Shown in pieces: positions 2,597 through 61,108 of a stretch of DNA of 64,000 nt. Source of the stretch: an uncultured Planctomycetota bacterium (GTDB taxonomy: Bacteria; Planctomycetota; Planctomycetia; Isosphaerales; Isosphaeraceae); assembly GCA_963823665.1 (NCBI GenBank), contig CAWGMQ010000011.1, forward strand, positions 1,088,001-1,152,000. Reading direction: 5' to 3'. Each line of letters starts with the position of its first letter. Positions within the stretch are counted from its first letter, which is position 1. The position numbers and the translations under genes are program-made. Under the pieces are notes generated by a model that did no database searches, had not been told where the DNA came from, and saw nothing but the letters and a program-made list of their open reading frames with translations.

Positions 2597-2622
2597 TGCG
2601 GCGATCCGCCATTCCGCCGGAT

Positions 2623-5370
2623 CTATCCCAAAAGGGATTTCCGGCCCTTCGACTTGCCGGCCGTTTGTTCGAGCGCCAGGTCATAGACCAACTGCCCAAA
2701 CACATCGGTGGCATTCGCAGCCGGCGCCACCGCGACATCATCCAGACGGAATCCGCCGATCCGATCGTTGACAGGGCGATTGAGTGCACTTGAGAGCGCT
2801 TCGTCGACCGCCGCCAGGCTGCTCGCCAACGAACTCGAGGGATGCACGCTCGCAGCGGAAACATCCGATTGAGCCGTTGCCGCACGACCCGGAGAGCTCG
2901 AGCTCGATCCGTTGCCTTGCCCCTGGAACGACGTAGCGGCAAGGGCGCTCATTGTTTCGGATAGAGGCGGCGGGTCGGGATCGAAGAACAGCCCGCTCAG
3001 CACTGCATTGGGGCCGGCCGTCCGCGTGAACGTGATCAGCACGTTCCCCGATATCGTCCAGGTCAGATACTCTCCACTCGCGAAATTCGACACACTCTGC
3101 GTATTCAGCACGGCACTCGTATTGGCGTCGGAGAGCGTCACAGTCTCCGCGCGGTGCGACGCGTCGTAGTCAAGGAAATAGAGCTCGAGGTTGTAAGCCT
3201 GGCCGGAGGCCACGTTCACATCGACCGTGAAGCTCGTGGCCGAATCCCAGACAGCCGCAACACGACTCGTCCCGGACGGCGGTACCTGAAGCGCCTGCCG
3301 GGTTGACGGCGACGGCGTCGACCAAGTGTATTCCGACTCCCCCGACGGCGTGATCGTGGCATGCGCCGGATTGACCACGCTGCTGGCGACCAGGGTATAC
3401 CCATCCAATCCGTAGACGTTGATCCAGTTCCCCTGAGTCGATGTATCGGAGCCGACAAAACTCGCCGTGGCCGAACCAGGAGGCGGAGGTGGCGGAGGTG
3501 GCGGCGGCGGCGGAGGTGGCAAAGTCGTCGTGGGATCGAAGAATAGTCCGTTCAGCACCGCATTGGGGCCGGCCGTCCGCGTGAACGTGATCAGCACGTT
3601 CCCCGATATCGCCCAGGTCAGATACTCTCCGCTCGCGAAATTCGACACACTCTGCGTATTCAGCACCGCACTCGTATTGGCGTCGGACAGCGTCACTGTC
3701 TCCGCACGCCCCGAGGTGTCGTAGTCAAGCAGATAGAGCTCGAGGTTGTACTCCTGGCCCGGGGCCACGTTCACATCGACCGTGAAGCTTGTGGCCGAAT
3801 ACCAGACAGCCGCAACACGACTCGTCCCGGACGGCGGTACCTCGAGCGCCTGCTGGGTTGACGGCGACGGGGTCGACCACGTGTATTCCTGCTCGCCGGC
3901 CGGCGCGATCGTGGCATGGGCCGGATTAACCACGCTGCTGGCGACCAGGCTATACCCATCCAATCCGTAGACGTTGATCCAGTTCCCCTTCGTCGAGGTA
4001 TCGGAGCCGACAAAACTCGCCGTGGCCGAACCAGGTGGCGGAGGTGGCGGAGGTGGCGGCGGCGGCGGAGGTGGCAAAGTCGTCGTGGGATCGAAGAATA
4101 GTCCGTTCAGCACCGCATTGGGGCCGGCCGTCCGCGTGAACGTGATCAGCACGTTCCCCGATATCGCCCAGGTCAGATACTCTCCGCTCGCGAAATTCGA
4201 CACACTCTGCGTGTTCAGCACCGCACTTGTATTGGCGTCGGAGAGCGTCACAGTCTCCGCACGGCCCGACGTGTCGTAGTCAAGGAAATAGAGCTCGAGG
4301 TTGTAATCCTGGCCGGAGGCCACGTTCACATCGACCGTGAAGCTCGTGGCCGAATCCCAGACAGCCGCAACACGACTCGTCCCGGACGGCGGTACCTCGA
4401 GCGCCTGCTGGGTTGACGGCGACGGGGTCGACCACGTGTATTCCTGCTCGCCGGCCGGCGCGATCGTGGCATGGGCCGGATTAACCACGCTGCTGGCGAC
4501 CAATTGATAGCCGTCGGATCCGAAGACATTGATCCAGTTGCCCTTCGTCGAGGTATCGGAGCCGACAAAACTCGCCGTGGCCGAACCAGGTGGTGGAGGT
4601 GGCGGAGGTGGTGGTGGCGGCGGAGGTGGCAAAGTCGTCGTGGGATCGAAGAATAGTCCGTTCAGCACCGCATTGGGGCCGGCCGTCCGCGTGAACGTGA
4701 TCAGCACGTTCCCCGATATCGCCCAGGTCAGATACTCTCCGCTCGCGAAATTCGACACACTCTGCGTATTCAGCACCGCACTCGTATTGGCGTCGGACAG
4801 CGTCACCGTCTCCGCACGCCCCGAGGTGTCGTAGTCAAGCAGATAGAGCTCGAGGTTGTACTCCTGGCCCGTGGCCACGTTCACATCGACCGTGAAGCTC
4901 GTGGCCGAATACCAGACAGCCGCAACACGACTCGCCCCCGACGGCGGTACCTCGAGCGCCTGCTGGGTTGAAGGCGACGGGGTCGACCACGTGTATTCCT
5001 GCTCGCCGGCCGGCGCGATCGTGGCATGGGCCGGATTGACCACGCTGCTGCCGACCAGGGTATACCCATCCGATCCGTAGACGTTGATCCAGTTCCCCTT
5101 CGTCGAGGTGTCGCTGTTAACGAAGACCGCCGACGCACCGGTCGCCGTGATCACGCCCGTCGAGACGGAGACGAAATTGTAGGTGTAGTTGTGTCCCGAG
5201 TTTCCGTCGGTGACCGTGCCGCTGGGCGTGAGCGTGAGTCCCGTGCCCGGGCTCGAGGTGTTGTAGGTCTCGATAAAGTTCGCCGTATCACCAAGGGCGA
5301 CGCTGCCAACCGTGATCGTCGGAATTGCCGTAGCCGAGGTCGTTCCGTCCTGGACCTTGGTGTTGGTCAC
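2623..5370 (-). CDS. Gene A C-terminal fragment: YDG-like module, four ~185-aa repeats with poly-Pro linkers, conserved tail
   Basis: 915-aa ORF. Joined to the upstream ORF by a 1-nt deletion at ~5388 (TISAR|ALTITAVTNTKV). Confidence 0.85.
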   Translation of the reverse strand: MTNTKVQDGTTSATAIPTITVGSVALGDTANFIETYNTSSPGTGLTLTPSGTVTDGNSGHNYTYNFVSVSTGVITATGASAVFVNSDTSTKGNWINVYGSDGYTLVGSSVVNPAHATIAPAGEQEYTWSTPSPSTQQALEVPPSGASRVAAVWYSATSFTVDVNVATGQEYNLELYLLDYDTSGRAETVTLSDANTSAVLNTQSVSNFASGEYLTWAISGNVLITFTRTAGPNAVLNGLFFDPTTTLPPPPPPPPPPPPPPGSATASFVGSDTSTKGNWINVFGSDGYQLVASSVVNPAHATIAPAGEQEYTWSTPSPSTQQALEVPPSGTSRVAAVWDSATSFTVDVNVASGQDYNLELYFLDYDTSGRAETVTLSDANTSAVLNTQSVSNFASGEYLTWAISGNVLITFTRTAGPNAVLNGLFFDPTTTLPPPPPPPPPPPPPPGSATASFVGSDTSTKGNWINVYGLDGYSLVASSVVNPAHATIAPAGEQEYTWSTPSPSTQQALEVPPSGTSRVAAVWYSATSFTVDVNVAPGQEYNLELYLLDYDTSGRAETVTLSDANTSAVLNTQSVSNFASGEYLTWAISGNVLITFTRTAGPNAVLNGLFFDPTTTLPPPPPPPPPPPPPPGSATASFVGSDTSTQGNWINVYGLDGYTLVASSVVNPAHATITPSGESEYTWSTPSPSTRQALQVPPSGTSRVAAVWDSATSFTVDVNVASGQAYNLELYFLDYDASHRAETVTLSDANTSAVLNTQSVSNFASGEYLTWTISGNVLITFTRTAGPNAVLSGLFFDPDPPPLSETMSALAATSFQGQGNGSSSSSPGRAATAQSDVSAASVHPSSSLASSLAAVDEALSSALNRPVNDRIGGFRLDDVAVAPAANATDVFGQLVYDLALEQTAGKSKGRKSLLG

Positions 5371-8300
5371 CGCGGTGATCGTGAGCGCCGCGCCGAGATC
5401 GTGGCGGTCGAGACTGGAATGAACGTGTAGCTGTAGTCGTTACCGGAGAAGCCGTCGCTCACCGTTCCGGCCGGAGTCAGCGTCAACCCCGTGCCCACGT
5501 TCCTGGTGCTGTAAATCTCGGTGAAGTTCGGCGTGTCAGTGCCTTGAATGACACCCGAGGTGATCTTGGGAATCGTCACCGCCCCGGTTGTCCCGTCATA
5601 GGTCTTGCTGTTGGCCAACGCCGTCACAACCAGCGCCCGCGACGTGATTACTCCGGTCGAGACCGTAACGTACGTGTACGAGTAATTGTTGCCGGAGTTG
5701 CCGTCACTCACCACCCCGGCGGGAGTCAGCGTCAACCCCGTCCCCACATTCTTCGTGCTGTATGTGTCAGTGAAGCTCGCCGTGTCACCAGGCATCACCG
5801 CGCCCGAAGTAATCGTGGGCAACGCCGCCGCTGACGTGGTCGCGTCATAGACCTTGCTGTTGGTCGCGGCCGTGATCGAGAGCCCGGCCTTGATGATGGT
5901 TCCGGCGGCGGTCTGGAGGACGACGTTGTAGTCGGCCCCGCTGACGCCGTCGGTGACGGTGTAACCCGACTGCACAACCAGCGTGCTGCCGAGGGTGCCC
6001 AGGACGTTCTTCGAGGCGAACGCCTGCGTCAATCCTGTCAGCGTGTCGCCGCCGTACAGCTTGTTGGCAGGCTCACCGCTGACCTGGTAGGCCGGAGTCT
6101 GCGACGAGGTGGTGAGCCCGTTATAGACCCTGCTGTCGGTCGTCGCCGTGATCGTCAGGGTCGCCGGGGTGATTGTGAAAGTGGTATAGTTACTCGCGGA
6201 AGCGTAGTTGGTCGTCCCGGCGTAGCTGGCGTAGACCGTGTAGGTTCCAGCATCCTTCGGAGCCCTGCTTCCGAGATCGGTGCCGCCGTTCCCGATACCG
6301 ACGTAATAGGTGTAAGTGAGCGGGACCCCATCCAATTCGTTCGAGGGTAAGCCGTCGTTGGGGGTGATGGTGGCGCTGGCCGCAAAGGGCGATCCGTTGT
6401 AGAAATTGCTCGCGTCGGTGACGCTCACCGTGGGCTTGATCTGGTTGATGGTGATCGATGTGCTGGTCGCGCCGCCGGTGATCAGATTGCTCCAGGGATT
6501 GCCCGACGGCAAGGCCGAAGCGACCAGATGGTACACGCCGGCGTCATTGATGCTCAAATCGGTGAAGGTGACGATGCCGCCTGACGCATCGAGCGGGTTC
6601 GTGCCCGAAAGCGTACCGAGGTATGGCCCCGCGCTCAGCGTGAGATCCACCTGCGAACCGGGCACGGTGCTGCTGTCGAAATTGATGCCGAGGTTGCCGC
6701 TAGAGTCCTCGGCCACGAGTTCTGGCTGCTGGGCGAAAGTGACGCCGAAGCTGGCCGTGGATGAGGGCTCGGGCACGAAGACCAGCTCGGTCGGCACCGC
6801 GTAGTAGGCAGACACGGTGGGATTGAAGCCAGAGCCCGTGCCGGGTGTAAAGACGCCGATCCACGGCGTGAAGCTAACATTGCCCGACACGCCCGCGCCA
6901 TCGCCGCCGGGGTTGGCCGACGTCGTCGGACCATGCAAGCTGCCCCACCAGTTCTGTGTGGCATCGATCGACCCGCTTGACTGGATGTCGTCCACACCCG
7001 TGGTGTCGCCCGTGAAGTCGTTGTCGTTGATTGTCGCCGTGCTGGTGTCGCCCGGGCCAGAGCCCACCAGGACGCCGGTCGTGTCGGTTTGAATCGTGTC
7101 GTTGGTGATCGTCGCGCTTGCGCCGTTCTCGACCAGAATGCCGGTCGTGTTGTCGATGATCGAGGCGCCGCTGATAAGCGCTGAAGTCGCGGAGCCGCTC
7201 ACCAGCACGCCGGTGCCATCGGATGCAAACGTGCCGCCCGAGATCGCGACTGTGCCTCCGAAGGCGGCGATGCCGCCGCCGTCGAGGTATGAGGTGTTGC
7301 CCGAGACAATGCTGCCCGTGATGGTCAAGCTCCCGCCCGCCTGGTAGATTCCGCCGCCCGAGGCTGCCGTGTTGCTCTCGATGCTGCCGCCGGAGACCGA
7401 GACGGTACCACCCGGATTCGAGACGGTACCACCCGAGTTATATATGCCGCCCCCGGCGCCCGTGGCGTTGTTGCTGGAAATCTCGCTGTCGATCAAGCTC
7501 AGCTTGCCGGCGTTAAAGATGCCGCCGCCGGAGGCTGCCGAATTGTCCGTGATGACGTCGCCGTCGAGCGTGAGCGAGGCACCACGCTGGACAACGATGG
7601 CGGAGTAACCCGAGAAGTTTTTGATGGTCAGGCCCGAGATGGTCACGTCGGCCGCGGTGACGTCGAAGCCGGAACCCGACAGACCGGTGCCGTCGAAGCG
7701 GGAAGCCGACAGAAGGGTGCCGTCCAGGACGGGGGTCGCACCCTGCGATGCGTCGGCCTCGATCGTCAGGTCGGGCACGGAAACGACATCGGATTCGTCG
7801 TAGCCGTTGCCGGTTTCCACCAGGATCGTGCTGCCGTCGCCGGCCACACGGATGGCGGCCTGGATCGTCGTGAAGCCGGTGGCCGGGGTTGCCCCGTTGT
7901 CAGTCCCGGATGTATTGGCCGAGTTGACGTAGATTGTGGGCTGGTATTCATAGGCGCCGAAGTCGACGACGCCGAACCCATGCTCTGGCCGGATGAGTCC
8001 GCGCTGGTCGGTGGTTGGTACGTCGACACCGGTTATGGTGCTGCTTCCCGCGCCCAAGGCGGGACTGCCCGGCAGTAGGGCGATCGTCTCGGTCGGGCCG
8101 CCGTTGCCGGCCAGTCTCGCAGCCAGCCCCGGGTTGCCGGGCCCGAACAGAATCGGATTGATCGAGCCCGTCACCGTACCGGTTCTCGTCAACGCCGACC
8201 AGGTTGTTCGAGCTGTCCGAGGCGATTCCCGTGCCCGCGATATCACCTGCGCCGGAGGCATCGGTGTCGAGCGCGACGATTGTGTTATAGAGGGTGGCCG

Positions 8301-11300
8301 TGCCGTCAATAATATCCAGCCCGCCGCCGGAGCTGGTTGCCGTGTTGTAGGCGATGGTGTCGTTGATCGCCGTAAGCGTTCCGGAGCCATTGGGCCCGCT
8401 CTGGACGGAGATGGCGCCGCCGGAGCTGGCCGAGTTGTCCGCGAGCGTGCTGTTGATGATCGTCATGTCGCCGCCCGGAAGAGCAATGCCGCCGCCGTCG
8501 ACCAGAGCGGAGTTGCCCGAGAGGGTGCTGCCCGTGATGGTCAAGCTCCCGCCCGCCTGGTAGATTCCGCCGCCGGACCCAAAGTGGGCTGCGTTGTTCG
8601 TGAGCGCAGTTGCTGTTGACGTGCACCGTGCCCGATTGATTAAAGATGCCGCCGCCGTAGGTATAGGCTGCATTGCTCGAGATCGCTCCGCCGGAGATCG
8701 TGAGCTCGCCCCCGGCGTTGAAGATTCCGCCGCCATTCGAGTCGGCGTAGTTGTTCGAGATCTCTCCGCCGTCGATCTGTACCAAGCCGCCCAAGTTAAA
8801 GATGCCGCCGCCGAAGTCGGCGCCGTTCTGCGAAAGCCCGCTGTTGGTGATGGTCAGGGTGCCGCTCTGAAGATAGATCCCGCCGCCATCGATGCCGGCT
8901 TTGTTGCCCTGGATTGTGCAACCTGCGGTCACATGCACCGCGCCTGATTGATCATAGATGCCGCCGCCGCTTGCGCCGACGGTGTTGTTCGAGATCGCGC
9001 CGCCGGAGATCGTGACCTTGCCGCCCGCGTTGTCGATGCCACCGCCGCTGGCGGCGGTGTTGTTCGAGATCGTGCCGCCGGTGACGGTCAGCGTGCCGCC
9101 CGCCACAAAGATCGCGCCGCCGCCTGAGGCTGCCGTGTTGCTCTCGATGCTGCCGCCGGAGACCGAGACGGTACCACCCGAGTCATAGATGCCGCCCCCG
9201 GCGCTGGTGGCGTTGTTGCTCGAAACCTCGCTGTCGACAATTGACAGCTTGCCGGCGTTAAAGATGCCGCCGCCTCGGGCCGCCGAATTGTCCTCAATGG
9301 TGTCGTTGATCGCCGTGAGCGTTCCGGGGCCGACAGGCCCGCTCTGCACGCAGATGGCACCGCCTGAGCTGGCTGAGTTATCCGCGAGTGTGCTGTTGAT
9401 GATCGTCAAGTCACCGCCCGCAAGCGAGATGCCGCCGCCGTCGTGGTAAGCGGTGTTGCCCGAGACGGCGCTGCCCGTGATGGTCAAGCTCCCGCCCGCC
9501 TGAAAGATTCCGCCGCCGTAGCCATTTTGGGATCGGTTGTTCGTGACAGCGCAGTTGCTGTTGACATGCACCGTGCCCGATTGATTAAAGATGCCGCCGC
9601 CGTCGGTGTAGGCTGCATTGCTCGAGATCGCTCCGCCGGAGATCGTGACTTGTCCCCCGGCGTTGAAGATTCCGCCGCCATTCGTGATGGCAAAGTTGTT
9701 CGAGATCTCTCCGCCCTCGATCCGCACCAGGCCGTCCGAGTTAAAGATGCCGCCGCCGAAGTCGGCGCCGTTCTGCGAAAGCCCGCTGCTGGTGATGGTC
9801 AGGGTGCCGCTCTGAAGATAGATCCCGCCGCCATCGTTGCCGGCTTTGTTGCCCTTTATGGTGCAACCGGCGGTCACGTGCACCGCGCCTGAGTGATCGT
9901 AGATGCCGCCACCGCTCTTGCCCGCGCTGTTATTCGAGATCGCACCGCCGGAGATCGTGACTTTGCCACCCTCGTTGTCGATCCCGCCGCCGCTGGCGGC
10001 GGTGTTGTTCGAGATCGTGCCGCCGGTGACGGTCAGCGTCCCGCCCGCAACAAAAATCGCGCCACCGCCCTTGCCTGCCGTGTTGCCCTCGATGCTGCCG
10101 CGAGAGACCGAGACGGTGCCACCCGGATTCGAGACGGTACCACCCGAGTTATATATGCCGCCCCCGGCGCCCGTGGCGTTGTTGCCCGAAATCTCGCTGT
10201 CGATCAAGGCCAGCTTGCCGGCGTTGAAGATGCCACCGCCGGAGGCCGCCGAGTTGTCAGTAATGACGTCGCCCTTGAGCGTGAGCGAGGCACCACGCTG
10301 GACAACGATGGCGGAGTAACCCGAGAAGTCTTCGATGGTCAGGCCCGAGATGGTCACGTCGGCCGCGGTGATGTCGAAACCGGAAGCCGACAGACCGGTG
10401 CCATAGAGGACTGGGGTCGCACCCTGCGATGCGTCGGCCTCGATGGTCAGGTCGGGGACCGAAACGGAATCGGATTCGTCGTAGCCGGTGCCGGTCTCGA
10501 CCAGGATCGTGTCGCCCGCGACGGCGGCCTTGATGGCGGCCTGGATCGTCAAATAGCCGGTGGCCGCCGTGAATCCATCGTCAGTCCCGGAGGTATTGGC
10601 CGAGTTGACGTAGATCGCGAGCGGCTGCTGGTAGGCCCCGATGAAGACAGCTCCGGCGGCGTAGTCTTGCCGCGGGAAGCCGCGCTGGTCGGTGGTTGGT
10701 ACGTCGATTCCCGGTATGGTGGTGCTTCCGGCGTCCACGGCGGGACTGCCGATCAACAGTGCGATTGTCTCCGTCGGGCCGCCGTTGCCCGCCAGTCCGG
10801 CGGCCAGCCCCGGGTTGCCGGGCCCGAACACAATCGGATTGATCGAGCTGCTCACGGTGCCGGTTCTCGTCTACGCCCACCAGGTTGTTCGAGCTGTTCG
10901 AGGTGATCCCCGTGCCCGCGATATCGTCGGCGCCGGAGGCATCGGTGTTCGTGGCGACGATGGTGTTATAAAGCGTGGCCGTGCCGCCCGTCACATCCAG
11001 GCCGCCGCCCGAGTTGGTGACGGTGTTGTAGGCGATGGTAACGTTGATCGCCGTGAGCGTTCCGGAGCCATCGGGCCCGCTCTGGACCGAGATGCCGCCG
11101 CCTGAGCTGGCTGAGTTGTCCGCGAGCGTGCTGTTGGTGATCGTCAAGCCGCCGCCCGGCAGTGAGATGCCGCCGCCAAAGCCAAGGCCGGATGCGCCGG
11201 GATTACCCGCGCTCGCCATTACGCCATTAGTTCCAGTCGCACCCCTGCCACCCTGTCCACCGGCGCCTCCGACGGCGGAGTTGTCCGCAATCGTGACGCC

Positions 11301-14300
11301 GGAGATCGTGACGGCACCGCTGGCGATATACAGACCGCCGCCGTAAGCCGAACCGCCGATACCGCCAGTACCCCCGGCGCCTGGGGCTCCGCCTGCGGTG
11401 ATGGAGCCGCTTGCCCCCTGTTCGCCAACGCCGCCCACGGCTTTGTTGGAGTTGATCGAGACGTTGGAGAGCGTCAAGTTGCCGCCCGAGTCAAAAACTC
11501 CGCCGCCCATGGCGTTGGCGCCAACGGTTCCGATGGCGGAGTTGCCCGCGATCGTGCCCTCGGAGACGGTGACGAGACCACCGGCGAGATAGATGCCTCC
11601 GCCGCTCTCCGCCGCGTTGGACTGGATCGTGGCGCCGGTGGCATGCACCGTGCCCCCGGCTTCGTAGACGCCGCCGCCGCTTGCGCCGGCGACGTTGTTC
11701 GAGAGCGTGCCGCCGTGGATCGTGACGACGCCGTGCGAGTTGTCAATGCCGCCACCATCGTGACTGGCAGAGTTGTCCGCGAGGTTTCCGCCCGTGATGG
11801 TCAAGCTACCGCCGGCGTGGTAGAGGCCACCGCCGCTGGCCGCCGAGTTGGACCGGATGGTGCTGCCGGTCACGTGTACCGTGCCCGCGGCCTCGTACAT
11901 GCCACCGCCGTTCGTGGCGGCGTGGTTGTTCGAGAGCGTGCCGCCGGCGATCGTGACCTTGCCATCCGCGTAGATGCCGCCACCGTTGCCCGCGCTGTTC
12001 TGCGCGAGGGCGCTATCCGCGATGATCAAGGTGCCGTAAGACTGATAGATCCCGCCGCCGCTCGCCGCCGAGTTGAGCTGGATGGCACCGCCGGTCACGT
12101 GCACGGTACCCGCGCTATCGTAGAGGCCGCCGCCGTCGATGGCGGCGGTGTTGCTCGACAGGGTGCTGTCCGCGACGATCAAGCTCCCGCCCGCCTGATA
12201 AATCCCGCCGCCGTTCGCCGCCGAGTTGGACTGGATGGCGCCGCCGGTCACGTGCAGAGCGCCAACGGATTCGTAGATGCCGCCTCCGTCGGCACCCGCG
12301 ACGTTGTTCGAGATCGCGCCGCCGGAGATCGTGACCGCGCCGCCCGCTTCATCGATGCCGCCGCCGTCGAGCACGGCCGTGTTGTTCGAGATTGTGCTGA
12401 GAGTGACGGTCAGCGTGCCGCCGCCGACAAAAACTCCGCCACCGCCCTGGCCGGCTCCCGCGGTGTTCTGCTCGATGGTGCCCGCGAAGACCGAGACGGC
12501 ACCACCGGAATCAAAGATGCCGCCGCCGGCGAGCGCGGCGGCGTTACCGGCAACCTCGCCGCCGGTAATCGTCAGCTTGCCGCTACCGCCGACGTAGAGA
12601 CCGCCGCCAAAGGGCGCCGAGTTGTCCCGGATGGAGCCCCCGGTCACATGCACCGTGCCCGCAGTGTCGTAGAGGCCGCCGCCCGAGTTGCCGGCCATGT
12701 TGTTCGAGATCGTGCTGTCGGTGACGTTCAGCATTCCGCCGCCAAGATAAAGACCCCCGCCGTACGCAAGGCCGCCGCCTTCGCCCACGGCCTTGTTCGA
12801 GTTGACGGAGACATCGATCAGCTTCAGGACGCCGCTCGACTCAAAGATTCCGCCTCCCAGCGCGTTACCGCCGGATTGGCCGATCGTTCCCTCGGCTCCG
12901 TTTGCGGAGTTGCCGGTGATGGCACCGCCCGAGACCGTGACGACACCACGGGTGACGTAGATGCCGCCGCCGCTCGCTGCCGAGTTGTCCACGATGGTGG
13001 CGCCGGTCCCATTCAGCGTGCCGCCGACCTCGTAGATGCCGCCGCCGTCGCGCCCGGCGAAGTTCTGCGAGAGCGCGCCGCCGCCAAGAGTCACACGGCC
13101 GCCCGCGTCGTCAATCCCGCCGCCGTCTGAGCTGGCGTTGTTCTCTCTCAGGGTGCTGTCCGCGATGGACAAAGTGCCGTTCTCAAGATAGATACCGCCG
13201 CCGTTCGCCGCCGAGTTGAGTAGGATGGTGCAGCCAAGGGCCACTTGCACCCTGCCCGTGGCATCAACGATGCCGCCGCCGTCGATGCTGGCGATGTTTT
13301 GCGAGAGGGTGCTGCCCGCGACCGTCAAGGCGCCGTTCTGAAGATAGATTCCGCCGCCGTTCGTCGCTGTGTTGCCCGTTATGGCGGCGCCCGAGACTTG
13401 TGCCTCGCCCGCGCTATCGTAGAGGCCGCCGCCGTCGGTGCCGGCGGCGTTGTTCGAGATCGTGCCGCCGGCGATCGTGATTGCGCCGTCACCGTCAAAG
13501 ATGCCGCCGCCGTTGAACGTGGCGGTGTTTTGCGAGAGGACATTGTCCGTGATGATCAAGCTTCCGCCCGCCTGATAGATGCCGCCGCCGGAGGCTGCCG
13601 AGTTGAGCTGGATAGCACCACCGGTCACGTGCACGGTGCCCGCGCTATCGTCGAGTCCGCCGCCGTCGATCGAGGCGGTGTTGTTCGACAGAGTGCTGTC
13701 CGTGACGATCAAGCTCCCGCCCGAGAGATAGATGCCGCCACCGTTTATCGCCGAGTTGAGCTCGATGGCGCAGCCGCCTTTCACCTGCGCTGTCGCCGAG
13801 TGATCAAAGATGCCGCCGCCGCGTGAGCCCGCGGCGTTGTCCGAGAGCGCGCCGCCGGAGATCTTGACGTCGCCGCCTGAGTCGTCGATGCCGCCGCCGT
13901 CGACGGTGGCCGTGTTGTGCCAGAGCGTGCTGTCCGTGATGATCAAGCTCCCGCCCGCCTGATAGATTCCGCCGCCGCTCGCTGCCGCGTTGCTCTGGAT
14001 GATGGCTCCGGCCACATGCACCGCGCCCGAGTGGCCAAAGATGCCGCCGCCGCTTGCGCCGGCGACGTTGCTCGAGATCGCGCCGCCGGAGATCGTGACG
14101 TCGCCACCCTCGTTGTCGATGCCGCCGCCGCCCGAGCCGGCCGTGTTGTTCGAGATCGTCACGCCGGTCACGGTCAGTGTGCCGCCCGCTACATAAATCG
14201 CGCCTCCGCCTGAGGCTGCCGTGTTGCCCTCGATGCTGCCGCCGGAGACCGAGACGGTACCACCCGGATTCGAGACGGTACCACCCGAGTTATAAATGCC

Positions 14301-32300: not shown

Positions 32301-35300
32301 GAGTCGTCGATGATGGCGGTGTCGGTGTCATGGATGTTGTTGACGGCTACGGCGGCCGCCCCGGCGAAGTTGCCGCTCAAGCTGGCGCCGACATTGCCCG
32401 CCAGGGTCGCGATCGAGGCCGTATCGGTGGCCAGCACCGAGAGCTTGCCGGCGGCGGTCACCAGCGATGGCGTGCCTCCGAGGCCGACACCCCCGCTGGC
32501 GGCGATGTGGGCGTCGACCGTGTTGGTGATGAAGTTGAGGGCGAACGAGCCGCCGAAGGCGTTGCCGCTAGCGGAACCGGCGCCGCCGACCACGACGTTG
32601 ATGTCCTGCGCCGCCTCGGTGGAGCTGACGGTCACGGCTCCCCCCGTCGATTGGACCGTCGACCCGTGGACGTAGGCCGTGATGATGTTCGCGATATCAT
32701 TCAAGCCGATGGAGGCATTGACGGCCGTCTTACTGCCGGTCGAGATGGCCACGGAGCCGGTCCCGGAGCCGATCTTCGAGGCATCGTTGGCCTCGACCTC
32801 AATATTGCCCCCGGCCTGGACGTTCGAGTTGCTCGAGATGTGGGCATCGACGTCCATGCGGACGAAATTCAAGTTGACGGCGCCGGCGCCGGCGCTGTTG
32901 GTGCCCCCCGCCCCGGCGGCCGCGACGCTGACGAGCTGGCCGCTGATCGGGATGGGCAAGGCCACGGCCATGCCCCCCACGACGAACTGCGTGGGCTGGA
33001 CCTCCAGGCTTTGGCTCGAGCCCGTCCCGGGTGAGGTCAGAGGGATGGGCTGGTTGTTGACGGCGTCATTCTCGGTGCCAGCCAGCTTGATATGAGTCGC
33101 GTCCACCACGATGACGTAGTAGATCTGGCCGCTCGTCAAGCTGCCGATGCTCGAGCCACCGCCGTTCTCATAAGTGACGGCGTCGCCGGTGGCCAGATTG
33201 GGGTTCTTCGCGAAGCTGATCTCGTCTGCCCCGGGCGTCGTGGTCGCCACGGCGGAGGTGCCGAAGGTGAGGGCCGAGGCGGGCACGGTCGGAGTAAAGC
33301 TTTGCCCCGTGCCAAGGCCCAATGAGCTCAGAGCCAGCGCGGTGCCGGCGCTTGCGTTCGCCTGCGAATTTGCCAACTGGATGGTAAAGTCATTGACCTT
33401 GATGACGTAGTACGTGCCGCCATCGGTCAGGCCGCCGACATCGTACACGCCTTTCAGGGCCGGGATGTCATCGATCTCTTGCTGGAGCTGAGCGGCCAGG
33501 GTCGCGGCGGTATAGGTCCCGTGGGTCAAGGTAATGCTGAACCGAGTGCCGCCGGCGGACAGGTACAGCGTATCGTTGGTGGAATCGATTGCGAGCGTGG
33601 CGGCACTGGAGCCGGTGATCGTGCTGTCCGTTTTGGAGGTCGTGGTCTTGGGTGAACTGCCAAAGAGGCCGATCGCGGCGTCGCCGCTTACCTGAATGAC
33701 CGGACCGCCCGAATCGAGAGTGAGCATGCCGTTGTTTTGAGTGACGGTCATGCCCCCGTTGCTGTGGTAAACGACCTCCTCGCCGGTCGTCAGGCCGTGG
33801 GGGCTGGCGAACGTGACCGCGTTCGTGACCGACAAACCGGCCTTGATGATGGCGGTATTGATGGCGGTCTGGACTGCCGTGGCCAGGGCGCTGGCCGTGT
33901 AAGTCCCCGCCTTCAGCGTGATGGTGAGCGGTGTGTTCTTCACGTTCACCAGCAGTGTGTCGTTGCTGCCGGCCGTGATGGTGAGATTGGCGGTCGCGGA
34001 CCCCGTGATCGAGTCGCCGCTGGTCGTGGGAGCAGAGCCGAGCAGGCCGGTTTCCGCATCGCCCCCAGTCACAGTGAACTGAGGATTGTTCGAGGTGATG
34101 GTCAACGTGCCAACGTTCTGGCTGACGGTGACCGCGGCGATGGGAACCGTGGTGGCCGGCAGCGCGACGCTCTGGGAGGACGGATTGAACGACGCGCCAG
34201 CGGCGACATCGAGCGGCGTGAGGGTCTGGCTCGAGCTCGTGCCGGGGGAGCTCAATGAGATGGGCCTGGACGAGGTGGGCACCAGGATTGTACCCGCGCC
34301 GGAAGAGGTCAACTCGATTGGGTTGCCATCATTGGCATCGGTCAGCGAGTCGGCCAGCACGACCTGCGTCGCGCTCGCGCTCATGACGTAGTAGGTCGTG
34401 CCGCTCGTCAGTCCGCCGATTGCGGTGCCCTTGGTTGCGACATAGACAACGGCCTCTCCGGTGTACAAGCCGAGACTGCTCGAGGAGAGCGTGATCTGGT
34501 TGGTTGCGGTATTCACCCCGGTCACGTTTGCCTGGATCGGAGTGCCGGACACGGCGTCATCATAGGTCGCGGCCAGCTTGATCGTGTCAGGATCAAGCAC
34601 GATGACGTAATAGGAGTGGCCGCTCGACAGCCCGCCGATGCTGCTGCCGCCGCCGCTGTTGTAGACAACTTCCTGCCCCGTGGTCAGGCCGTCGGGACTG
34701 GCAAAGTGAATGGCGTCGCCGCTCTCCGTGACGCCAGAACTGGTGTTCAAGTTCAAGGTGGTGGCGCCGGGCAGCGTGGTCGGGTTATTGAAACCCGACA
34801 GGACGAGCACCTGGCCGCCGGCGGTCACGGTCGAGCTATCAATATAGGCCGTGTCGCCGCTGGCCGGCTCGGGCACCGTGAACGTCCCGGTGCCGGTCGA
34901 GGCGGTCAGGCTGATGATCTGGCTGGGGCTTCCGCTGGTGGCGTCAGCCTGAGAGGGGTCGAGCTGAATATCGGTCGCATCGACGGAGACGACGTAATAG
35001 GTGCTCCCGTCCGTGAGGCCGCCGATACTCGCGCCGCCATTGTTGTCGTACTTGACCGGCTCTCCCGTGTACAGGCCGGGGTCGCTGGCGAAGCTGACCT
35101 CGTTGCCATTCGTGATGGTGGCGTTCACGGCGGACGGGCCGAATGTGGCGGACGGGGATGCCATCAAGGCCGTGAAGGTGTGCCCCGTCCCACTACCCAG
35201 GTTGGGACCGAGCGTGATGGGGACGGTGGGCGTCGACAGGGCGCCGGCCTGGCTTGCGGCGAGCCCGATCCCGTTGTCGGGGGCCTTGATTATGTAGTAG

Positions 35301-38300
35301 CTGGCCCCCTCGGTTAAGCCGTCGATGCTGGTGCCGCCGGCGTTGTCGTAGACCAGCTCTTCGCCGGTCGTCAGGCCATCGTGCGTGAAGATGGCGCCGT
35401 TCATTTCCTTCTGGAGCTCGACCGCTAGCTCAGCGGGCGTGTACGTCCCGGCCGCGAGCGTGATGGTAAGCGCCGTGCCGTTCACATTCACCACGAGGGT
35501 GTTGTTGCTGCTGGTAATCGTCGTCGAAGCGGCGGCGGGGGTCGAGCCGCTGATCGAGTTGCTCGAGGCTGAAGGCGAGCTGCCAAAGAGGGCGCTCTCT
35601 GCGGAGCCGCTCACCTGGATCTTCGAGGCGCCGGCGGGCAGTGGAACGTTAAAACTCAAGATCAGCGTGCCGTTGCTTTGCTCGGCGCTGAACAGGTAGA
35701 TCTCATTGCCGGAGATCGAGGAGCTCGTGGGATTGAACGTCACGGCCGGCGTGGATTGCAGCTTCGTGAGCGTGAAGTTCTGGCTCGAGGTGGCGCTGCC
35801 GGTAGACGATATCGGGATGGCGGTGCCGGCCAGGGCTTCGGCGTCGGTCGCGGCAAGCTGGATGTGGTTGGGATCGACCGCGATGACGTAGTACGTCTGG
35901 CCATCGACCAGGCCGCCGATCGGGGTGCCGCCATTGGCGTGGTAGACAACCGCGGTTCCGGTGGCGAACCCATTATTGGGTAAATCGATCTCGGTATTGA
36001 CGGGGATCGGGTTATCCGCGGTCGTGCTGACGGTCGTGCTGCCGGGGAGGACGCCGCTCGTGTAGGACAGGACGTTCGGATCCAGAGAGGACAGGCCGCC
36101 CAGGTAGTTATAGGCCAGGTCGGCACCGATGGAGCTACCGCCGCCGCTTGCGGCGACGCCCAGGGCGACCACGTACTCCGAGGCCGCTTCGCTCGAATTC
36201 ACCGTGACATTGCCGGCAGAGGCCGTGACGGTCGAGCCGAGCAAGTGCGCGTCCACTGTATTGGTGACGGAGTTGATGGTGAGGGTGCCCGCACCGGTGG
36301 AGCTCTTACCGCTGCCGCCCCCCCGGCGCCGACCGCCACCAGCAGCGGGCTCGAGGCGGCCGACACGCTGACGGAACCGTCCGAGGAAGTGACCGTGGAA
36401 TCGAAGATGTAGGCGGTGATGGCGTTGCACAAGACGTTGTAGCCGATGGACAGCCCGACGCTGTCGCTCTTTTGCGACAAGGCGACGCCGCCCGAGAACG
36501 AGGCGTCCAGCGACGTGTCGCCCGCCTGGACCGTGACGTTGCCGGTGCTGGTGACCGTGGCGCTGGCGATGTCGGCGTCGACGGTGTCCTGAACCAGGTT
36601 GATCGCCACCGAACCGCCCAGGGCGGAACCCTGGGTGCTGGCGGCGCCGGCCACCGCCAAGTTGAGGATCGAGGAGTTCTCGTCGGCCGTCACCTGGACC
36701 GCCGCCCTAGCGACGACGGTCCCACCCTCGATTTCGGCCATCGTGTTATTGGCGATATCGTTGAACGAGAACCGCCGCGCCGATGCCGGCGTTCTTGCCG
36801 CCGGCGGCCGCGCCCGCCCAGGCCACGATATTCGTCGTCCCGGTCGCCGAGACGGTCAGACCCTCGTCGGAATTGGCCGCCGGATAACCGGTGGTTCCGA
36901 CTAGCGTATTAATCGAATCGCCACTGCTGATATAGGCATCTGTCGTCTGATTGATCACGTTGACGATGAACGACCCGGCGAGGGCCTTACCGCCGGACGC
37001 GGAGCCGACGCCGCCGGCCAAGTCGGTCGCCTGGACTGAATTGATCAGCGTGGTAAGGACCGTGTTCAGAACGCTGGATTCAGAGATCTGGGTGAGCGTC
37101 GCGGAGGTAACGCTGGATATCGCCGGCGCCGCGAGGATCAGGTAGCCGGCGGTTAGGGGCTGGGGGGTGGTGGCCGTGAAGGGCGCCGAAAGCGTCAGCA
37201 CGGTGCCCGCCAGAGTGTAGGCGATACTCTCTATCGTCGTACCGGGTAGGATGCCGGTGCCGCTCACGGTCTCGGTGGGGGCCAGCCCCTTGACTGTATT
37301 GGTCGTTACCTGATTGGGATTCGTCGCGCTCGGTGTACCGGTGAAGGGGATGCTGCCTGTCGCCAGGACCACCGTCCCGGTCACGATGCCGGTGCCCTGG
37401 AGCGGCTCGCCGGCGAACAGCGGCGCCGAGCTGCTGAAGCCCGTGACCACAGGCGAATTGAGCGTAAGTGTACCGGTGATGGTTGTTGGATTGTTGGGGA
37501 TGATCTGGTCGGCCGTCGAGCTGGGGACCACGTCCGTCCCCGGATTGAGTGACGACTCGGAAGTGACCTGGGTCAGGTCGGCCACATTCGCTTGAACGCC
37601 CGAGGCGAGGAATGCGCTCGTCGTGTTGTTGAGGACGTTCACATTGACAGCGGCGCCGGCGCCCGTGTTCATGCCGACGGCCAGCGTGACGGCGATGTTC
37701 TGAAGCGTCTGGTCGTTTTCGGCGTGGACGGTCAGGCCGCCAAATGACTTCACGGTCGTTGATCCAGAGAGGCTCTCGGTAACACTGAACGTCGCCGGCG
37801 CCGAAAGGGTGATGGTGCCGGACGCCGGGCCGATAGCCGTGATCGTCGTCCCAACCGGGATGCCGTTGCCGGTGACAGTCTCCCCGACGTTGAGCCCCGT
37901 CGTACTGCTGATACCCGTGACCTGCATTCCGTTCAGTGTGCCGACGATGGTGCTGGGAAGTCCGGTGATCGTCTCGAAAACGGGGCCGCCGGTGATCGTC
38001 GCGGGCGCTGAAAGCATAATGCTGCCTGGTGAGCTTGCGGTCGAACGGACGATACTCGTGATCGTCGTCCCAACCGGGATGCCGATGCCGGTGACGGCCT
38101 CCCCGTCGAAAAGCACCGCCGTACTGCTGATGCCCGTGACCATGTTCAACCCGTTCGTGACTGTCCCGACGACAGAGCTTCCGGTTGGCGTTGCGGTGAG
38201 GCTCTCGGAAACGGGGGAAACGGGATTCGATAGCGTGATGGTTCCGGGTGCTGGACCGATACCCGTGATCGTCGTCCCGGCCGGGATGTCGGGGCCGCTG

Positions 38301-41300
38301 ACAGCCTGCCCGAGGGAGAGCTTCGCCGTGTTGCTGATGCCCATGACCTGATTCGATCCGCTCGTGATCGTGCCGGTGAGACCGCCGATCGAGGCCTGGG
38401 TATTGATCGTGATCACGTTGATCCCGGCCGAGCCCGCGTAGCCGCTGGCCTGCGATCCGAGGGCGACACCCAAGGCCTGTGTCGAGAAGTCGTTGGGAAG
38501 CGGCTGATTGTTGGTCCCCATGACCATCTGGGCACTGACGGTCACGCCGTCGGCCGAGATGGTGTCGCCGGCGCCGATCGTGGCCGTGTTGGTCACGGTG
38601 GCGACATTAAGGGACGCGGCGGCGCCGATCGAGTTCTGGCTGCCCGTAACCTTGGACACGGTCACGGCGGCGGCACGCCCGTCGGCCAGGGCCAGGGCGG
38701 TGGCCTGGTTGGCGGTTTGGACCGAGAGCGAGCCGCTGGTCGTTGTCACGGTGAGACCGTTGTCGATCGACGCGACCGTGCTGGTCGAAAGGACGTTGAC
38801 GGCGACGGCCGCCGCGAGACCCACCTGCGTCGCGCTTTTGGTGCCCGCCTTGGTCGTGGCCGAGCTCGAAGGCGAGGTGGTCTCGTCGCTGGATTTCGGG
38901 GGTGCCTTGACCTTGGTCGTATCGGCGGTACCCGTGGCATTGCTGTCCATCGGAGCGTCCGAGCCCCCCTCCGTGTCGGCGTAGCTGAACTGGTTCGACG
39001 TCTCCTGGTCCGCGGTCCCGCTGCTGCCGGTGGATGCAGGGGGAGGCGAAGAAGAGGAGGACGACGACGGCGGCGCGGGCGAGCCGCTCTCGCTGGCGAT
39101 GGCGGCGGCCTGACTGAACGACGTCACCGGATTCGCCGTCACGCTGATGGGGCCGGCGGCCGTGACGTTGCGGCCCAACTCGGCGAGGAACGAGTCCTGC
39201 GACACGTTTACGACCACCGAAGCCCCGACCCCGACGCCGCCGCTGGTAGCGGCCGTGGCGTCGGCCAGCGAGCTCACCGAGTACGACCCACTCGCTCCGA
39301 TCGTGAGAACCGCCCGCGAGGACCAGCGGAGTCGCACTGTCCGAGCCGACGCTGGCCGTGGTCATATCGCTGGCGATCACGATGGCGATGCCGGCGCCGA
39401 TGCCTATCTTGCCGGAGGCCCCGTTCGTTGCCGTGGTCGTGATCGTGTGGTTCGAGCTGGCGGTCACCGTCAAGCCGGCGGCGCCCGTCAGGCCCGCGTT
39501 CTGCTGCAACTCCGACTGGGTGGTGTCGGAAATGATGTTCAGGGCCAACGACGCGCCGACGCCCGCCTCGCCGCCGGTGGCGACGCTACCCGGCACGGGT
39601 AGCGCCGACGTCGTGTCGGTCGAGTTGTTCAGGGAGGTTATCGAGACAGTGCCCGCGACACTGCCCGTGTCATTGTCGGCGGTGACAGAAGCGCCGGTCT
39701 CGATCAGGGCTTGACTGGTGTTGTTGACGATGTTGATCGCCAGCGACCCGGCCACGCCGATGTCGGTCTGCCCCGCGCCAGAGCCCGCGCCGGAGGTCGC
39801 CGAGGCGCCGTATACGTTCATCGGAGTGGTGCCGAGCATTCCCGCATTGACGATCACACCATCGGTGTCGATCGTCGCGGCCTGGATCGTCGCCTCGGTC
39901 GAGGCATCGACGAGGTTCAAGGCGACCGCGGCGCCGATTCCGGCCTTGGTGTTCCCCGCGGTCGCCGAGGCGGCGCCCGAGGCGGTCGCCGTGTCGCCGT
40001 AGACGGGGTTGGCGCTCGAGCCGGTGTCGTTGGTCGCGGTGACGGTCAAGGGACCGCCTGAGTCGGTGATGGTCAGGCCGGCGGGCACAGTCGCATCGGC
40101 CTGGCTGTCGGCGATGTTGACAGCCACCGCGGCGGCCACCGTGACCCCACCGTCGGACGTCGAGGCCGACGGGGTCGCGGCTTTGCCCTTGCTGTCGCCG
40201 ACACCGGAGGAATCCCCTTCGCTGTCCGCGAAGTTACGCTGCTTGGCGTTCTGGCCGTCGACGGAGTTGGAATCCTTTGTATCTGAGTTGGGCCCTTCCT
40301 CGCTCGTGTTCTCGCTGGATTGCGGCTGACTCGATTCCTGCGTATTGGTCTCCCCGCCGGAGGCGCTGGCCGTCGCATTGGCGGCGCTGGCGGACGACGC
40401 GTTGGCGATGAACGAGACGCCGCCCGAGCCGGTGGCCGTGATGTTCCGCAGGGTGGTCGCGGTGGTTTGATCGGTGGCGATGTTGAGGGCGATGGCCGCG
40501 CCCACGGCGGCGGAGCCCGTGCCCATGGCCGTGCCGCCGGAGGTGCTGCTGGTCGCACTGGTGTGGGTGGCCGTCGCCGACAGCGATCCCACCGTGAGCG
40601 TGCCGCCCGTCCCCACCTCCGCCGTGGTCGTGTTACTGGCGAGCGACAGCGCCACCGCGGGACTGACCGCGATCCCACCCGCCGCGCCCGCCTCGGCCGT
40701 CGTACTCATCGTATCGAGTGAGGTCGCCGACAGCGACGTCGCCCCGGCCCCGGTCATCATCACGTTGTCAGCCAGCTCCGCCAGGGCCGTATTGCTGACG
40801 ATATCCAGTCCCAGCGAGGCGCCGACACCGACCGAGCCGCCGCTGCTGGGGCTGCCGGGCGCCGGCATCGCCGACACGGTGGAATTCGCATCTTCCTCGG
40901 CCGTCAGCGACACGGCGCCGGTGCCGCCGGAGGTAATTGTCACCGTGGCACCGGACGTGGCCGGTGGGATGGCGTAGCTCTGACCGATGGTCGCCTGGCT
41001 GCTGGCACTCACCAAGTTGATCGCCAGGCCGCCGGCCACGCCGACGTCCGTGCCGCCCGCGCCGGCGGTCGCCGTGGCGCCGTAGGTGCTGGGCGTCTCG
41101 ACTCCACTTGCCATCCACTGCTGCGCTCCCACCGTGATGGCACCGGCATTGATTGTCGTCCCGGCGCCGATGGCACCGAGCGAGCGAGACTTGACCAGGT
41201 TCAGCGCCACCGCGGCGCCAACGCTGTCCTTTGCCGTCCCGGACGCCACGCCAGTGGCGGCGGCCGTGCCGCCGGTGGTGTTCTGCGCGCTCACTGTCAG

Positions 41301-44300
41301 CGTGCCCGGAGCGGTGATGGTGAGCCCGTCGGGGATCGTGGCGTCGGCTTCACTGTCGGCGAGGTTCACGCCCACCGCGGCGGCCACCGTCACCGAACCG
41401 TCGGACGTCGAGGCCGCCGGGGTCGGTGCGGCGCTCTTGCTGTCGCCGGAGCCGGACGAATCGCCTTCGCTGTCAGCGAACTTACGCTGCTTGGCGTTCT
41501 GGCCGTCGACCGAATTGGAGTCGTTTGTGTCTGAGTTGGCACTTGCTCACTCTTCTCACTGCTACTCTCGGTGGACTGCGGCTCACTCGACTCGGTGGTG
41601 TTCGACGGTCCGCCCGAGGCGCTGGCCGTCGCATTGGCGGCGCTCGACGACGACGCATCGGCGATAAACGAAACGTTGCCGCCCGTACCGGTCGCGGTGA
41701 TGCTCCGCAAGGTCGTCGCGGTGGTCTGGTCGCTGGCGAGATTGAGGGCGATGGCGGCGCCCACGGCGGCGGAGCCGGTGCCGGAGGCGGTGCCGCCCGA
41801 CGTCGTGGAGGTCGAACTGGTGTGGGTCGCCGTCGCCGAGAGCGATCCCACGGTGAGCGTGCCGCCGGAGCCGACCTCCGCCGTGGTTGTGTTGCTGGCG
41901 AGCGACAGGGCCACGGAGGGACTGACCGCAATGCCCCCGGCCGCGCCTGCTTCGGCCGTGGTGCTCATCGAATCGAGCGATGTGGCCGCCAGCGACGTCG
42001 CCCTTGCGCCGGTCATCACGACGTTGTTCGCCAGCTCCGCCACAGCCGTATTACTGACGATATCCAATCCCAGCGAGGCGCCGACACCGACCGAGCCGCC
42101 CGAGGCGCCGCCGGAGGCCGGCATGGCCGAAACCGTCGAATTGGCATCCTCCTCGGCCGTCAGCGACACGGCGCCGGTGCCGCCGGAAGTGATCGTCACC
42201 GTGGCGCCCGAGGTGGCGGGCGGGCTGGCATAGCTCTGCCCGATGGTCGCCTCGCTGCTGGCACTGACCAGGTTAATGGCCAGGGCGCCGGCGAGGCCAA
42301 CGTCCGTGGCACCCGCGCCGGCGGTCGCTGTGGCGCCGAACGTATTGACCTCCGGCGTGCCCGAGTCCTGGTGCATGGTGGCACTGAGGGCCACGGACTG
42401 GGCGCTGATGGTGGTCCCGGCGCCGATGGTGGCCATGTCGCGGGATTTGACCAGGTTGAGCGCGACGGCGGCGCCGACGCCGAGTTTGGCGGTGCCCGCG
42501 CCGGTGCCGGAGGCCGTCGCCGTGTCGCCAAAGACCGTGCCGGAGCTGGCCCCGGTGCCATTGGCGGCGGTGAGGGTCAAGGGGCCGGCCGCGGTGATGG
42601 AAAGGCCGTCGGGGATGGTCGCCTCGGCCTCGTTATCGGCGATATTGACGGCCACCGCGGCTGCCACCGTGACTCCACCGTCGGAGGTCGAGGCCGTCGG
42701 GGTATCGGCGTCACTCGTGCTGCTGCCGGCGTCGGCCTCGTTTCCGTCGGAGTCGGTGTCCGTACTCGCCTCGCTGTCGGCATAGCTGCGTTCCTCGGCG
42801 TCCTGGCCGTCCACGGAGTTGGGATCGCTGGTGTCGGATCCGGAGGCCGCCTCGGAGCTGCTGGCCGGGCCCGAGTCCGACTCCTGCGACTCCTGGGTGT
42901 TGGTCGGACCGCCCGAGGCGCTCGCGGTTGAGGTGACGACACTGGCGGCCGACCCGTCGGCAATAAACGATACTCCCCCTCCCGTCGCGTCGAGGGAACG
43001 GCCGGTCGTTGCCGTGGTCTTGTCGGTGACGATGGCCAGGGCGATCGCGACGCCCGCCGAGGCCGAGCTCCCCATGCCGGACGCCGCCCCCGATGTGGTC
43101 GACGCCGAACCGATGTGGGTCGCGGTGGCCGAGAATGCGCCGGTGACCGAGAGCGGGTCATTCGAGCTGTCCGGGGTCCCGACCTGGGCCTGCGTCGTGT
43201 TGGTCACGAGCGTGATGGCCGCCGAAGGGCTGATCGACAACGTTCCCCCCGCCGAGCCCGCCATCGCGTCCGTGGTGACCGTGTCGCTTGAGCCGGCGGT
43301 GAACGTCAGGTTGTCGGCACCGGTCAGTTTAGCCGTGTTCCCGAGATTCGCCAGCGTGGAGTTGCCGCCGATGTCAAGCGCGATCGACGCGCCGATGCCG
43401 CCAGAGCCGGTCCCGGTTGCCCCCGTGCCGGCCGGCTGGGCTGTCGCCGCCTCGGTGGCGCTGTCCTGCGCGTTGAAAGTCACGCTGCCATTGTTTGCGT
43501 GGGTATTGTTCGTGATCGAGACGGTCGAGCCCGATGGGACCGTTGCCGCGCTCGTGTTGGACACGATGTTCAGAGCCAGCGAGCCGGCGAGCGCGATTGC
43601 GCGCCCGAGGCCCCGGAAGTCGCGGATGCCGAGTCATTGTGAACGTCCGATGGGGACGCCATGGGCGTGGTTGCCTGAACTGTGATGGCGGGCGACGAGA
43701 GGGTGGTCGCGCCGGTCGTGCTTTCGACCGTGGCCGTGTTGCTCTCGTCGGCATCGTTGATCGCGACCGCGACGCCCACGCCGGCTTCGGCCTCGCTTGC
43801 GGTCGCGTCGCCGCTGGCCACGGTGGTCGTATTGTTGTCTGAGGACGCGCTGATGTTGATGGCACTCGTGCCCGTGACCGAGGACGAGTCGACGTAGGCC
43901 TGGGTCGTCGGCGTGAACCGGCTCACCGCCACGGAACCGGCGACGCTTATTGGAGAGCCGTCCGACTCGGCCGTGTCGGCGGGCGCGGATACGTCGGTGG
44001 AGAGCAGGCCTGTCGGCGGTTCGGGGCTTCCTGCCGCGGTGTAGTATGGGTCGAGGTGCCCCTTGAGGATGTTTTCAACCTGAGTGAGAATGCTGGAGCC
44101 GGCGCCGGCGATCGTCGAGCTGGCGGTCGTGGCGGCCGTGTTGGTTGTCGTGGCCGTGACATTGACCGTGGCGCCCTTCACGGTTGAGCCGCCGGCGACA
44201 TCGGCCTGGCTGGTGGTGTTGTCGACCGTCACGGCGGCGCTCGCCCCGCCGATACCGCTCGAGCCGTTCACGTCCGTCGTCACATTGGTGGTGTTGGTCG

Positions 44301-45216: not shown

Positions 45217-45552
45217 CGGTGCCACTCCATGTTGTGGTGCAAATTCTCAAACCTTGAGCAGGCGCAGTCGCTCAAGCTGATCACTGACCGCGCGGACCAT
45301 TCGTTTCAAACATCGGCGACCAGGCGGCCTGAAGAGCCTCGCTGGCTCTCCACGCCCCGGACACGTTCAGGGTGAGTCGTTTTGCGTGAAAGCGGGTTGC
45401 GCGAGGACCGCTGCCCCACACGTGGCGCACAGCGATCCGGCACGCGCCCGTGCCTGTCTCGGCAGCGCCGCAGTTCACGTGACTCTCAAGTCGTCAACTG
45501 CTGGGCCGTCTACGACCCGAAGAGCCGCATCGTCAACTTCACATCACTGTGG

Positions 45553-46232: not shown

Positions 46233-46258
46233 TGCGGCGATCCGCCATCCCGCCAGAT

Positions 46259-61073: not shown

Positions 61074-61108
61074 GTTGCGCTTTCAATTTGTGTTGGCATC
61101 GCGGAAGA

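Follow-up and report, generated by a model that had tools for sequence, protein, structure and literature searches.

The window analyzed here is a stretch of 64,000 nucleotides (nt) from the genome of an uncultured soil planctomycete of the family Isosphaeraceae (GenBank GCA_963823665.1, contig CAWGMQ010000011.1). In our labels it is G000:C11:1088001-1152000, where G000 is the assembly studied, G001 (same genus), G066, G079, and G098 are relatives, and C stands for contig. From the ATG at 45216 to the stop codon at 2623, the minus strand is occupied by 15 open reading frames (ORFs). These fragments almost certainly constitute one giant gene of 42.6 kb (2623..45216) that encodes ~14,200 residues, compared with ~2,700 codons at most for the largest piece in the assembly. 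An earlier note on this DNA, made from the letters alone, had proposed such a gene, with its ORFs joined by indels of 1-2 nt or by read-through of one TGA. All features listed below with their coordinates as parts of the gene lie on the minus strand, as does its upstream tandem paralogue.

Coding path and ends of the gene

The coding path was computed on the minus strand by a Viterbi search on a Markov codon model with frame-switch states. It runs continuously from 45088 to 2655 and passes through 13 frame switches (~43601, 41540, 39306, 36770, 36322, 31003-31012, 29863, 21394, 18740, 10862, 8607, 8181, and 5392) and one in-frame TGA, which together yield the 15 ORFs. All sites lie within ~10 nt of the positions given by the earlier note, and no intergenic spacers separate the 15 ORFs in this path. 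The read-through product, with an X at each break, comprises 14,201 amino acids (aa) and 1.37 MDa; it is rich in G, A, T, and S and holds 1.7% K+R.

The ATG at 45216 is preceded by a Shine-Dalgarno-like GGAG (45225..45228) and opens a basic N-terminal leader that ends in ELERRTLLS (45079..45216). The LERRTLL near the N-terminus is the sole LExRxL motif across the 14,201 aa. The leader takes on no hydrophobic signal-peptide core, with a maximum KD19 of 1.37 within the first 100 aa. The protein is closed by a short, low-complexity, basic tail (2623..2961, ...DLALEQTAGKSKGRKSLLG-stop), and no terminator or promoter match was found within 2300-2800. The earlier note had reserved the ribosome-binding site and leader for the first fragment and the tail for the last. 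This stands for leader and tail, which are single. It does not stand for the ribosome-binding site, as 3 of the 13 internal fragments also have a GGAG-like box ahead of an in-frame start (30920, 10756, and 8673), none with a leader. The proposed domain order of one multi-module protein is borne out by the domain matches, which comprise LktA_tand_53, choice-of-anchor Q, Big_3_5, Chlam_PMP, YDG, and four C-terminal repeats.

G001 harbors a syntenic orthologue of ~13,400 aa, with argJ downstream and a sister gene upstream, that is 48.7% identical over aa 809-13,746 and carries nine breaks of its own. Divergence by codon position follows the order third > first > second in six of six sections, to the 3′ end of the gene, and indicates constraint throughout to that end. 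Uninterrupted relatives, for which the earlier note suggested a search, do exist: two homologues with a similar leader are single ORFs from stop to stop (9,201 codons in G098:C57 and 7,853 codons in G079:C74), which match chiefly the LktA-type part. At E<=1e-40, one segment of the gene is matched by 7 of 121 genomes of the family.

Origin of the breaks

For each switch, 300 nt were aligned against paralogues and relatives, and spanning matches with a frame-restoring shift were counted. All 13 switches are crossed by one or more paralogues or orthologues with a frame-restoring indel, a pattern that is not due to chance. The restoring fraction of the spanning matches is 3/4 at 43601, 2/2 at 41540, 5/5 at 39306, 1/1 at 36770, 5/6 at 36322, 6/8 at 31003, 5/6 at 29863, 6/6 at 21394, 2/2 at 18740, and 9/9 at 5392. 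At 8607 the shift occurs in just 9/18, yet in all three best matches (85-87% identity). The claim that the repairs restore the repeat consensus was confirmed, as GVDET-GTV is intact in copies within the window and in the G001 orthologue (5/7 at 10862 and 6/7 at 8181). The in-frame TGA (24592..24594) replaces a tryptophan of the homologues (NDPW/NNPW). It aligns to Trp in three of three spanning proteins (P0003, P0063, and P0012), and Trp is also found in a paralogue on G000:C4. A DNA-level homologue across the TGA was not matched (0 matches), so the evidence for this site is at the protein level only.

Five soil metagenome runs contain 7-11% of the sequence words of the gene. Four of them were compared, over 24400-44300 only, and contain pieces identical to the window; among the pieces listed, one bridges a break. 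This 281-nt contig of run X4 equals window positions 36126-36405 with no substitutions and one extra base in the G7 run at the break (36317..36323), which restores the frame.

The breaks follow the local sequence. Four single-base insertions (39306, 36770, 10862, and 8181, within 8181..39311) are located inside GAGACC/GGTCTC hexamers, which we take to be the BsaI/Eco31I site. In the whole window, six of the seven “+1” switches come from one additional base in this hexamer (read as GAGAACC/GGTTCTC), the seventh being a 2-nt deletion, and the enrichment of the motif at 6 of 17 window switches has a P of ~2e-11. Other giant loci of G000 add four cases, whereas the G001 and G066 switches show none, and this distribution suggests strain-specific methylation behind the insertions. 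The deletions mostly shorten runs of G or A, often in GGGCGC, and the same G-loss context is found at breaks in the other giant loci of G000. One study of nanopore data reports a bias from G to A in the vicinity of methylated motifs (10.64898/2026.01.14.699587), which would fit a TGG read as TGA. No mention of GAGACC was found in the nanopore-error papers listed by a literature search.

Housekeeping genes of G000 are affected likewise. rpoB contains an extra base at C3:1631045 that is absent from 11 of 11 relatives, with G001 rpoB carrying its own deletion, and aspS (C4:181866-183602) contains two frame switches; recA and gyrB are intact. With rpoB and aspS frameshifted, annotation of this genome will overcall pseudogenes. 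In twenty spread 20-kb stretches (400 kb), 248 kb were called coding and contained 42 switches on the same strand, part of which are true borders between genes. A long-read metagenome origin of the assembly is inferred from its contig sizes and error pattern, and errors of long-read assembly are the most likely source of the breaks. It is highly probable that the 15 ORFs form one intact gene whose breaks are consensus errors.

Several observations weigh against this conclusion. The break rate of 1 per 3.3 kb exceeds that of the genome sample (<=1 per 5.9 kb) and of six of nine other giant loci (1-4 per 18-34 kb), with three equal or worse. The GAGAACC motif is carried by 1 of 42 random genome switches, and the GAGACC-type insertion is, given this count, not the main error genome-wide. 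The X4 contig has a depth of 2.6 and covers the sole break reached by independent sequence (1 of 14). In run X3, the 36317 site has a depth of 5.7 in pieces that lack the extra base, with bridging not demonstrated. Three of the breaks are also present elsewhere: G001 shares the one at 36322, and G066 those at 31012 and 29863. An intact homologue of more than 9,201 codons was not found; the protein searches span proteins of <=5,000 aa, full-length homologues being outside their reach. No RNA dataset with the sequence of the gene was listed in the read search.

The alternative that survives best, although unlikely, is a pseudogene of recent origin, or a gene with one or a few genuine lesions, such as the TGA, and errors at the other breaks. 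Besides the high break density, it is favored by the nature of the TGA, which is a substitution and is covered by none of the public contigs listed, and by a densely broken paralogue at G000:C5:1418-1437 kb that reveals either decay or poor consensus in the family. A decaying gene is, however, difficult to reconcile with a single stop in 14,200 codons, the absence of large deletions, and the codon-position constraint that reaches the 3′ end. The indels are moreover placed non-randomly at sequence motifs, rpoB and aspS are broken in the same way, and one indel is repaired in an independent contig.

Real slippage or recoding at some breaks, for example at a phase-variable G-run (36322) or at GCGC-GG-CGC sites, could tune the length of the filament. 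In favor of this, G001 lacks the same base at 36322, G066 does so at 31012 and 29863, and runs X4 and X3 differ at 36317. The frame is kept, however, at 31012 and 29863 in the G001 orthologue and in several paralogues, and at 31012 also in G098; the recurrent breaks are for this reason best explained by shared homopolymer errors. A single sequencing chemistry is expected to under-call the same homopolymers, and the G-loss context shared with other giant loci of G000 likewise argues for errors, making slippage very improbable. An operon of separate genes with co-assembling products, for which the three internal GGAG-like boxes could speak, is scarcely credible, since the breaks fall inside repeat units, leader and tail are single, spacers are lacking, homologous proteins cross the junctions, and intact single-ORF homologues contradict it.

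Domain architecture and predicted surface role

As one gene, the locus encodes a long shaft of LktA_tand_53-type β-solenoid (28017..45078), whose loops are acidic and rich in Ser and which carries small inserted domains. The family is matched by hidden Markov model (HMM) in fragments 1-8 over ~5,700 aa with E-values down to 1e-71, and four fragments pass the 50-bit cut-off of NF012206 (236.7, 145.6, 86.3, and 78.6 bits). The structural model of a 481-aa solenoid section is an all-β repeat with a predicted local distance difference test (pLDDT) of 74. Its matches to β-solenoids, including the secretion domains of FHA, HxuA, HMW1, and EtpA, are weak or middling (Z 6-9), and a Foldseek search against the PDB gave no match at E<=0.001.

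Three types of small insert interrupt the solenoid. Eight FCCH-like modules (“GGL..G..YYV”, 33010..36010, counted by self-profile), one of which is split by a nested insert, match the baseplate wedge family phrog_2885 (E 1e-10) and baseplate wedge initiators in BFVD (E 9e-6), with E1_FCCH as a strong lead; they are also related to phage tail-fibre modules. Homologues contain eight copies in G001, eight in G079, and six in G098. Twelve copies of a second insert of ~65 aa (“TFTGTL..GS.QVTG..ST”, 22308..38380) form clusters at 37159-38380, 25452-26073, and 22308-24141 and match a virion structural protein (phrog_6002, E 1.5e-5). A third insert (“LTITLAAGTYT..ELA..LQ..IN”) is repeated at 35387-35665, 33833-34135, and ~33440-33745, with one copy nested in an FCCH-like module, and shows weak matches only (PHROG 19400). 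The inserts resemble cyanophage baseplate-wedge and tail-fibre modules (PHROG 2885, 38233, and 6002; E1_FCCH-like) in sequence and fold; the difference is that they are located here in a cellular β-solenoid.

The shaft is followed by two Big_3_5 immunoglobulin (Ig)-like domains (21002..21819), six PMP-type GG(A/G)I β-helix units matched by Chlam_PMP, five with choice-of-anchor Q caps (7325..20968), and a YDG-repeat stalk (5140..6365; PF18657, E 4e-12, three stretches). Next to the tail are four 167-aa repeats (2977..5136) with a predicted galactose-binding-like jelly-roll fold (CBM35/CBM32/malectin). They are connected by linkers with runs of 14-17 prolines, and translation of such runs probably needs EF-P-type help. 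The repeat matched no Pfam, NCBIfam, or PHROG family. It is nevertheless widespread, with 160 matches among 2,419 candidates, and is fused in homologues to NPCBM, PA14, subtilase, YDG, and dockerin domains; it also co-occurs with Big_3_5. The model of the repeat, which has a pLDDT of 69 and is poor in its N-terminal third, is similar to CBM35, CBM32, and malectin, with Foldseek E-values of ~1e-4 to CBM35 and malectin. Its comparison with VIA gave a Z of 8.2 and a root-mean-square deviation of 3.3 over 112 aligned residues, in a fold that is also common to DOC and IFT25 domains. The conserved aromatic columns W18, W52, W77, Y78, Y100, and Y137 are only suggestive of glycan binding.

The sequence suggests an adhesin of the Isosphaeraceae that is exported from the cell. 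The basic LExRxLL leader may route the chain out of the cell. The LktA-type and PMP-type β-solenoids would then form a long rod with the Ig and YDG domains. The phage baseplate/tail-type inserts and the four CBM-fold repeats may bind polysaccharides of plant litter, soil particles, biofilm matrix, or other cells. Domain scans of the protein revealed neither an enzyme or toxin domain nor a transmembrane anchor or autotransporter domain, and the C-terminal β-barrel of Chlamydia PMP-type autotransporters was not matched in the last fragment.

A basic N-terminus followed by LExRxLL, as in LEPR-XLL-type motifs, is present in the form of LERRTLL. Against the proposed reading, the Planc_extracel (PF07595) and LEPR-8K/LEPR-XLL (NF012209) HMMs gave no match at E<=10 to this leader or that of the neighbor, and the fold matches of the 167-aa repeat are middling (best Z 8.2 for a model of pLDDT 69). 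The leader was also absent from the leader-model matches in genome scans, in which 150 of 512 and 150 of 248 candidates were scored. Leaders of paralogues match the models weakly, for example at C4:439581, C5:978994, and C8:554867. Genes for TolC, HlyD, HlyB, and sapC are absent from the window. In G000 (92% complete), SapC has 0 matches, and HlyD has 54 weak matches with 0 above the cut-off. LktA of the Fusobacterium type possesses an N-terminal secretion domain and a two-partner transporter gene. Fragment 1 shows no NCBIfam match to the LktA-family N-terminal secretion domain, and no two-partner transporter gene was found in the window, to which that search was limited. A wider picture is tentative: this soil genus, with genomes of at least 16 Mb, may build 1.4-MDa single-chain filaments from at least nine mosaic giant genes. 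They could carry ~20 phage-type modules on the shaft and an undescribed lectin-family tip that tandem genes exchange as a cassette, and might leave the cell by the LExRxLL route and not by a linked type I system.

Giant surface genes are typical of planctomycetes (PMC5177795, PMC5352709, PMC12673574, and PMC11573180). The giant genes of Fuerstiella marisgermanici and Gimesia maris, from the same phylum, encode multi-domain predicted surface, adhesion, and carbohydrate-binding proteins. The largest gene in a 2016 survey of 29 genomes has 36,239 bp, compared with 42.6 kb here, and Paludisphaera borealis has one gene >10 kb (PMC5177795, PMC5352709). If polished, the gene would be longer than any in the cultured-planctomycete surveys compared (36.2 kb). 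It is not shown to be a record, because proteins of >=10,000 aa are called frequent in Planctomycetota (10.1101/2023.11.21.568195). The same source describes how single-base indels of long reads put giant Omnitrophota genes out of frame and how Illumina reads repair them. These giants share the splitting by indels; they belong to another phylum, and their proteins have been linked to predation and the degradation of cell walls, while the present protein yielded no enzyme domain.

A likeness in architecture exists to Cag_665 (20,647 aa) and Cag_663 of Chlorobium chlorochromatii, giant β-helical surface proteins with an N-terminal LEPRxLL domain; Cag_665 also has LktA-like repeats near its N-terminus (10.64898/2026.03.19.712371). 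The Chlorobium genes flank a TolC-like gene and sapC, neither of which is in the window, and their C-terminal half consists of haemagglutinin motifs and an MtxA-like domain instead of PMP, YDG, and CBM-fold repeats (10.64898/2026.03.19.712371). With NF012206 LktA_tand_53, named a “tandem repeat-containing filamentous protein,” the repeat alone is shared, and nothing indicates leukotoxin activity here. No published account of this family or of its phage-like inserts was found in a search that was thin on subscription journals and bioRxiv supplements. That planctomycetes have giant surface genes, and that long-read indels fragment them, is already published; this gene is new and very long, with phage-like and sugar-binding-like modules. 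None of these findings overturns known biology. Because public protein sets conceal such a gene, giant-protein surveys count too few in long-read metagenome-assembled genomes (MAGs). The gene also supplies two testable units, the unnamed widespread 167-aa CBM-fold module and the phage-tail-type inserts in a bacterial β-solenoid.

Tandem paralogues and the host genome

Upstream of the giant gene is a tandem paralogue (46259..59386) of ~4,370 codons with an LEPRTLL leader, four frame switches, and a 93%-identical 3′ cassette. A second tandem surface-protein gene starts in the window (61097-64000), continues to ~C11:1159700, and contains one frame switch. Both upstream genes carry the same C-terminal repeat cassette and tail, and the three genomic matches of the tail are confined to this cluster (the giant gene and the two upstream genes). 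Positions 2553-5883 and 46189-49520 share 93% DNA identity over 3.3 kb, reaching ~70 nt beyond the stop codon, and this 3′ identity suggests that gene conversion may have acted between the tandem genes. In one tested stretch the giant gene is 87% identical to the upstream paralogue and 82% to the G001 orthologue, and its 5′ 4 kb are 89% identical to a non-syntenic G001 gene and 72% to the syntenic one. Paralogues appear to exchange modules, and the gene would hence be a mosaic.

G000 has nine loci with LktA-type repeats, whose coding chains span 12-43 kb. Other giant genes (24-34 kb) are likewise hidden, split by 2-8 switches each, and are located at G000:C5:14988-48822, C3:587158-611737, C6:1085001-1109330, C8:554894-580981, and C5:951982-978995. 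The LktA-repeat paralogue at G000:C5:1418000-1436975 (L009/L010) contains 24 switches in 12 kb, mostly +1, and is either a poorly polished region or a true pseudogene.

The G000 assembly comprises 16,460,759 bases in 12 contigs at 91.9% completeness and 3.5% contamination; G001 has 16.1 Mb at 84% completeness. The largest planctomycete MAG named in one paper has 13.99 Mb (PMC12673574). G000 exceeds this MAG and also the 16.04 Mb of Minicystis rosea, whose genome was described in 2021 as the largest of any bacterium. All 12 contigs were sampled and share a GC content of 0.61-0.64 and a depletion of CAGCTG, and rpoB, recA, and aspS are single, but a bin that mixes relatives could also account for the size of G000. 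CAGCTG occurs 0 times in the window (32 expected) and 4 times in 400 kb (268 expected). A base-calling artefact was rejected as the cause, as the word is also depleted in G001, G066, G079, and G098; the depletion reflects either lineage-wide restriction-site avoidance or mutational loss.

The remaining genes of the locus are an intact short-chain dehydrogenase/reductase (SDR) oxidoreductase between the tandem genes (60297-61082) and an intact argJ downstream of the giant gene (1128-2405). ArgJ is closest to Isosphaeraceae, with 68% identity to Aquisphaera insulae and 62% to Singulisphaera acidiphila.

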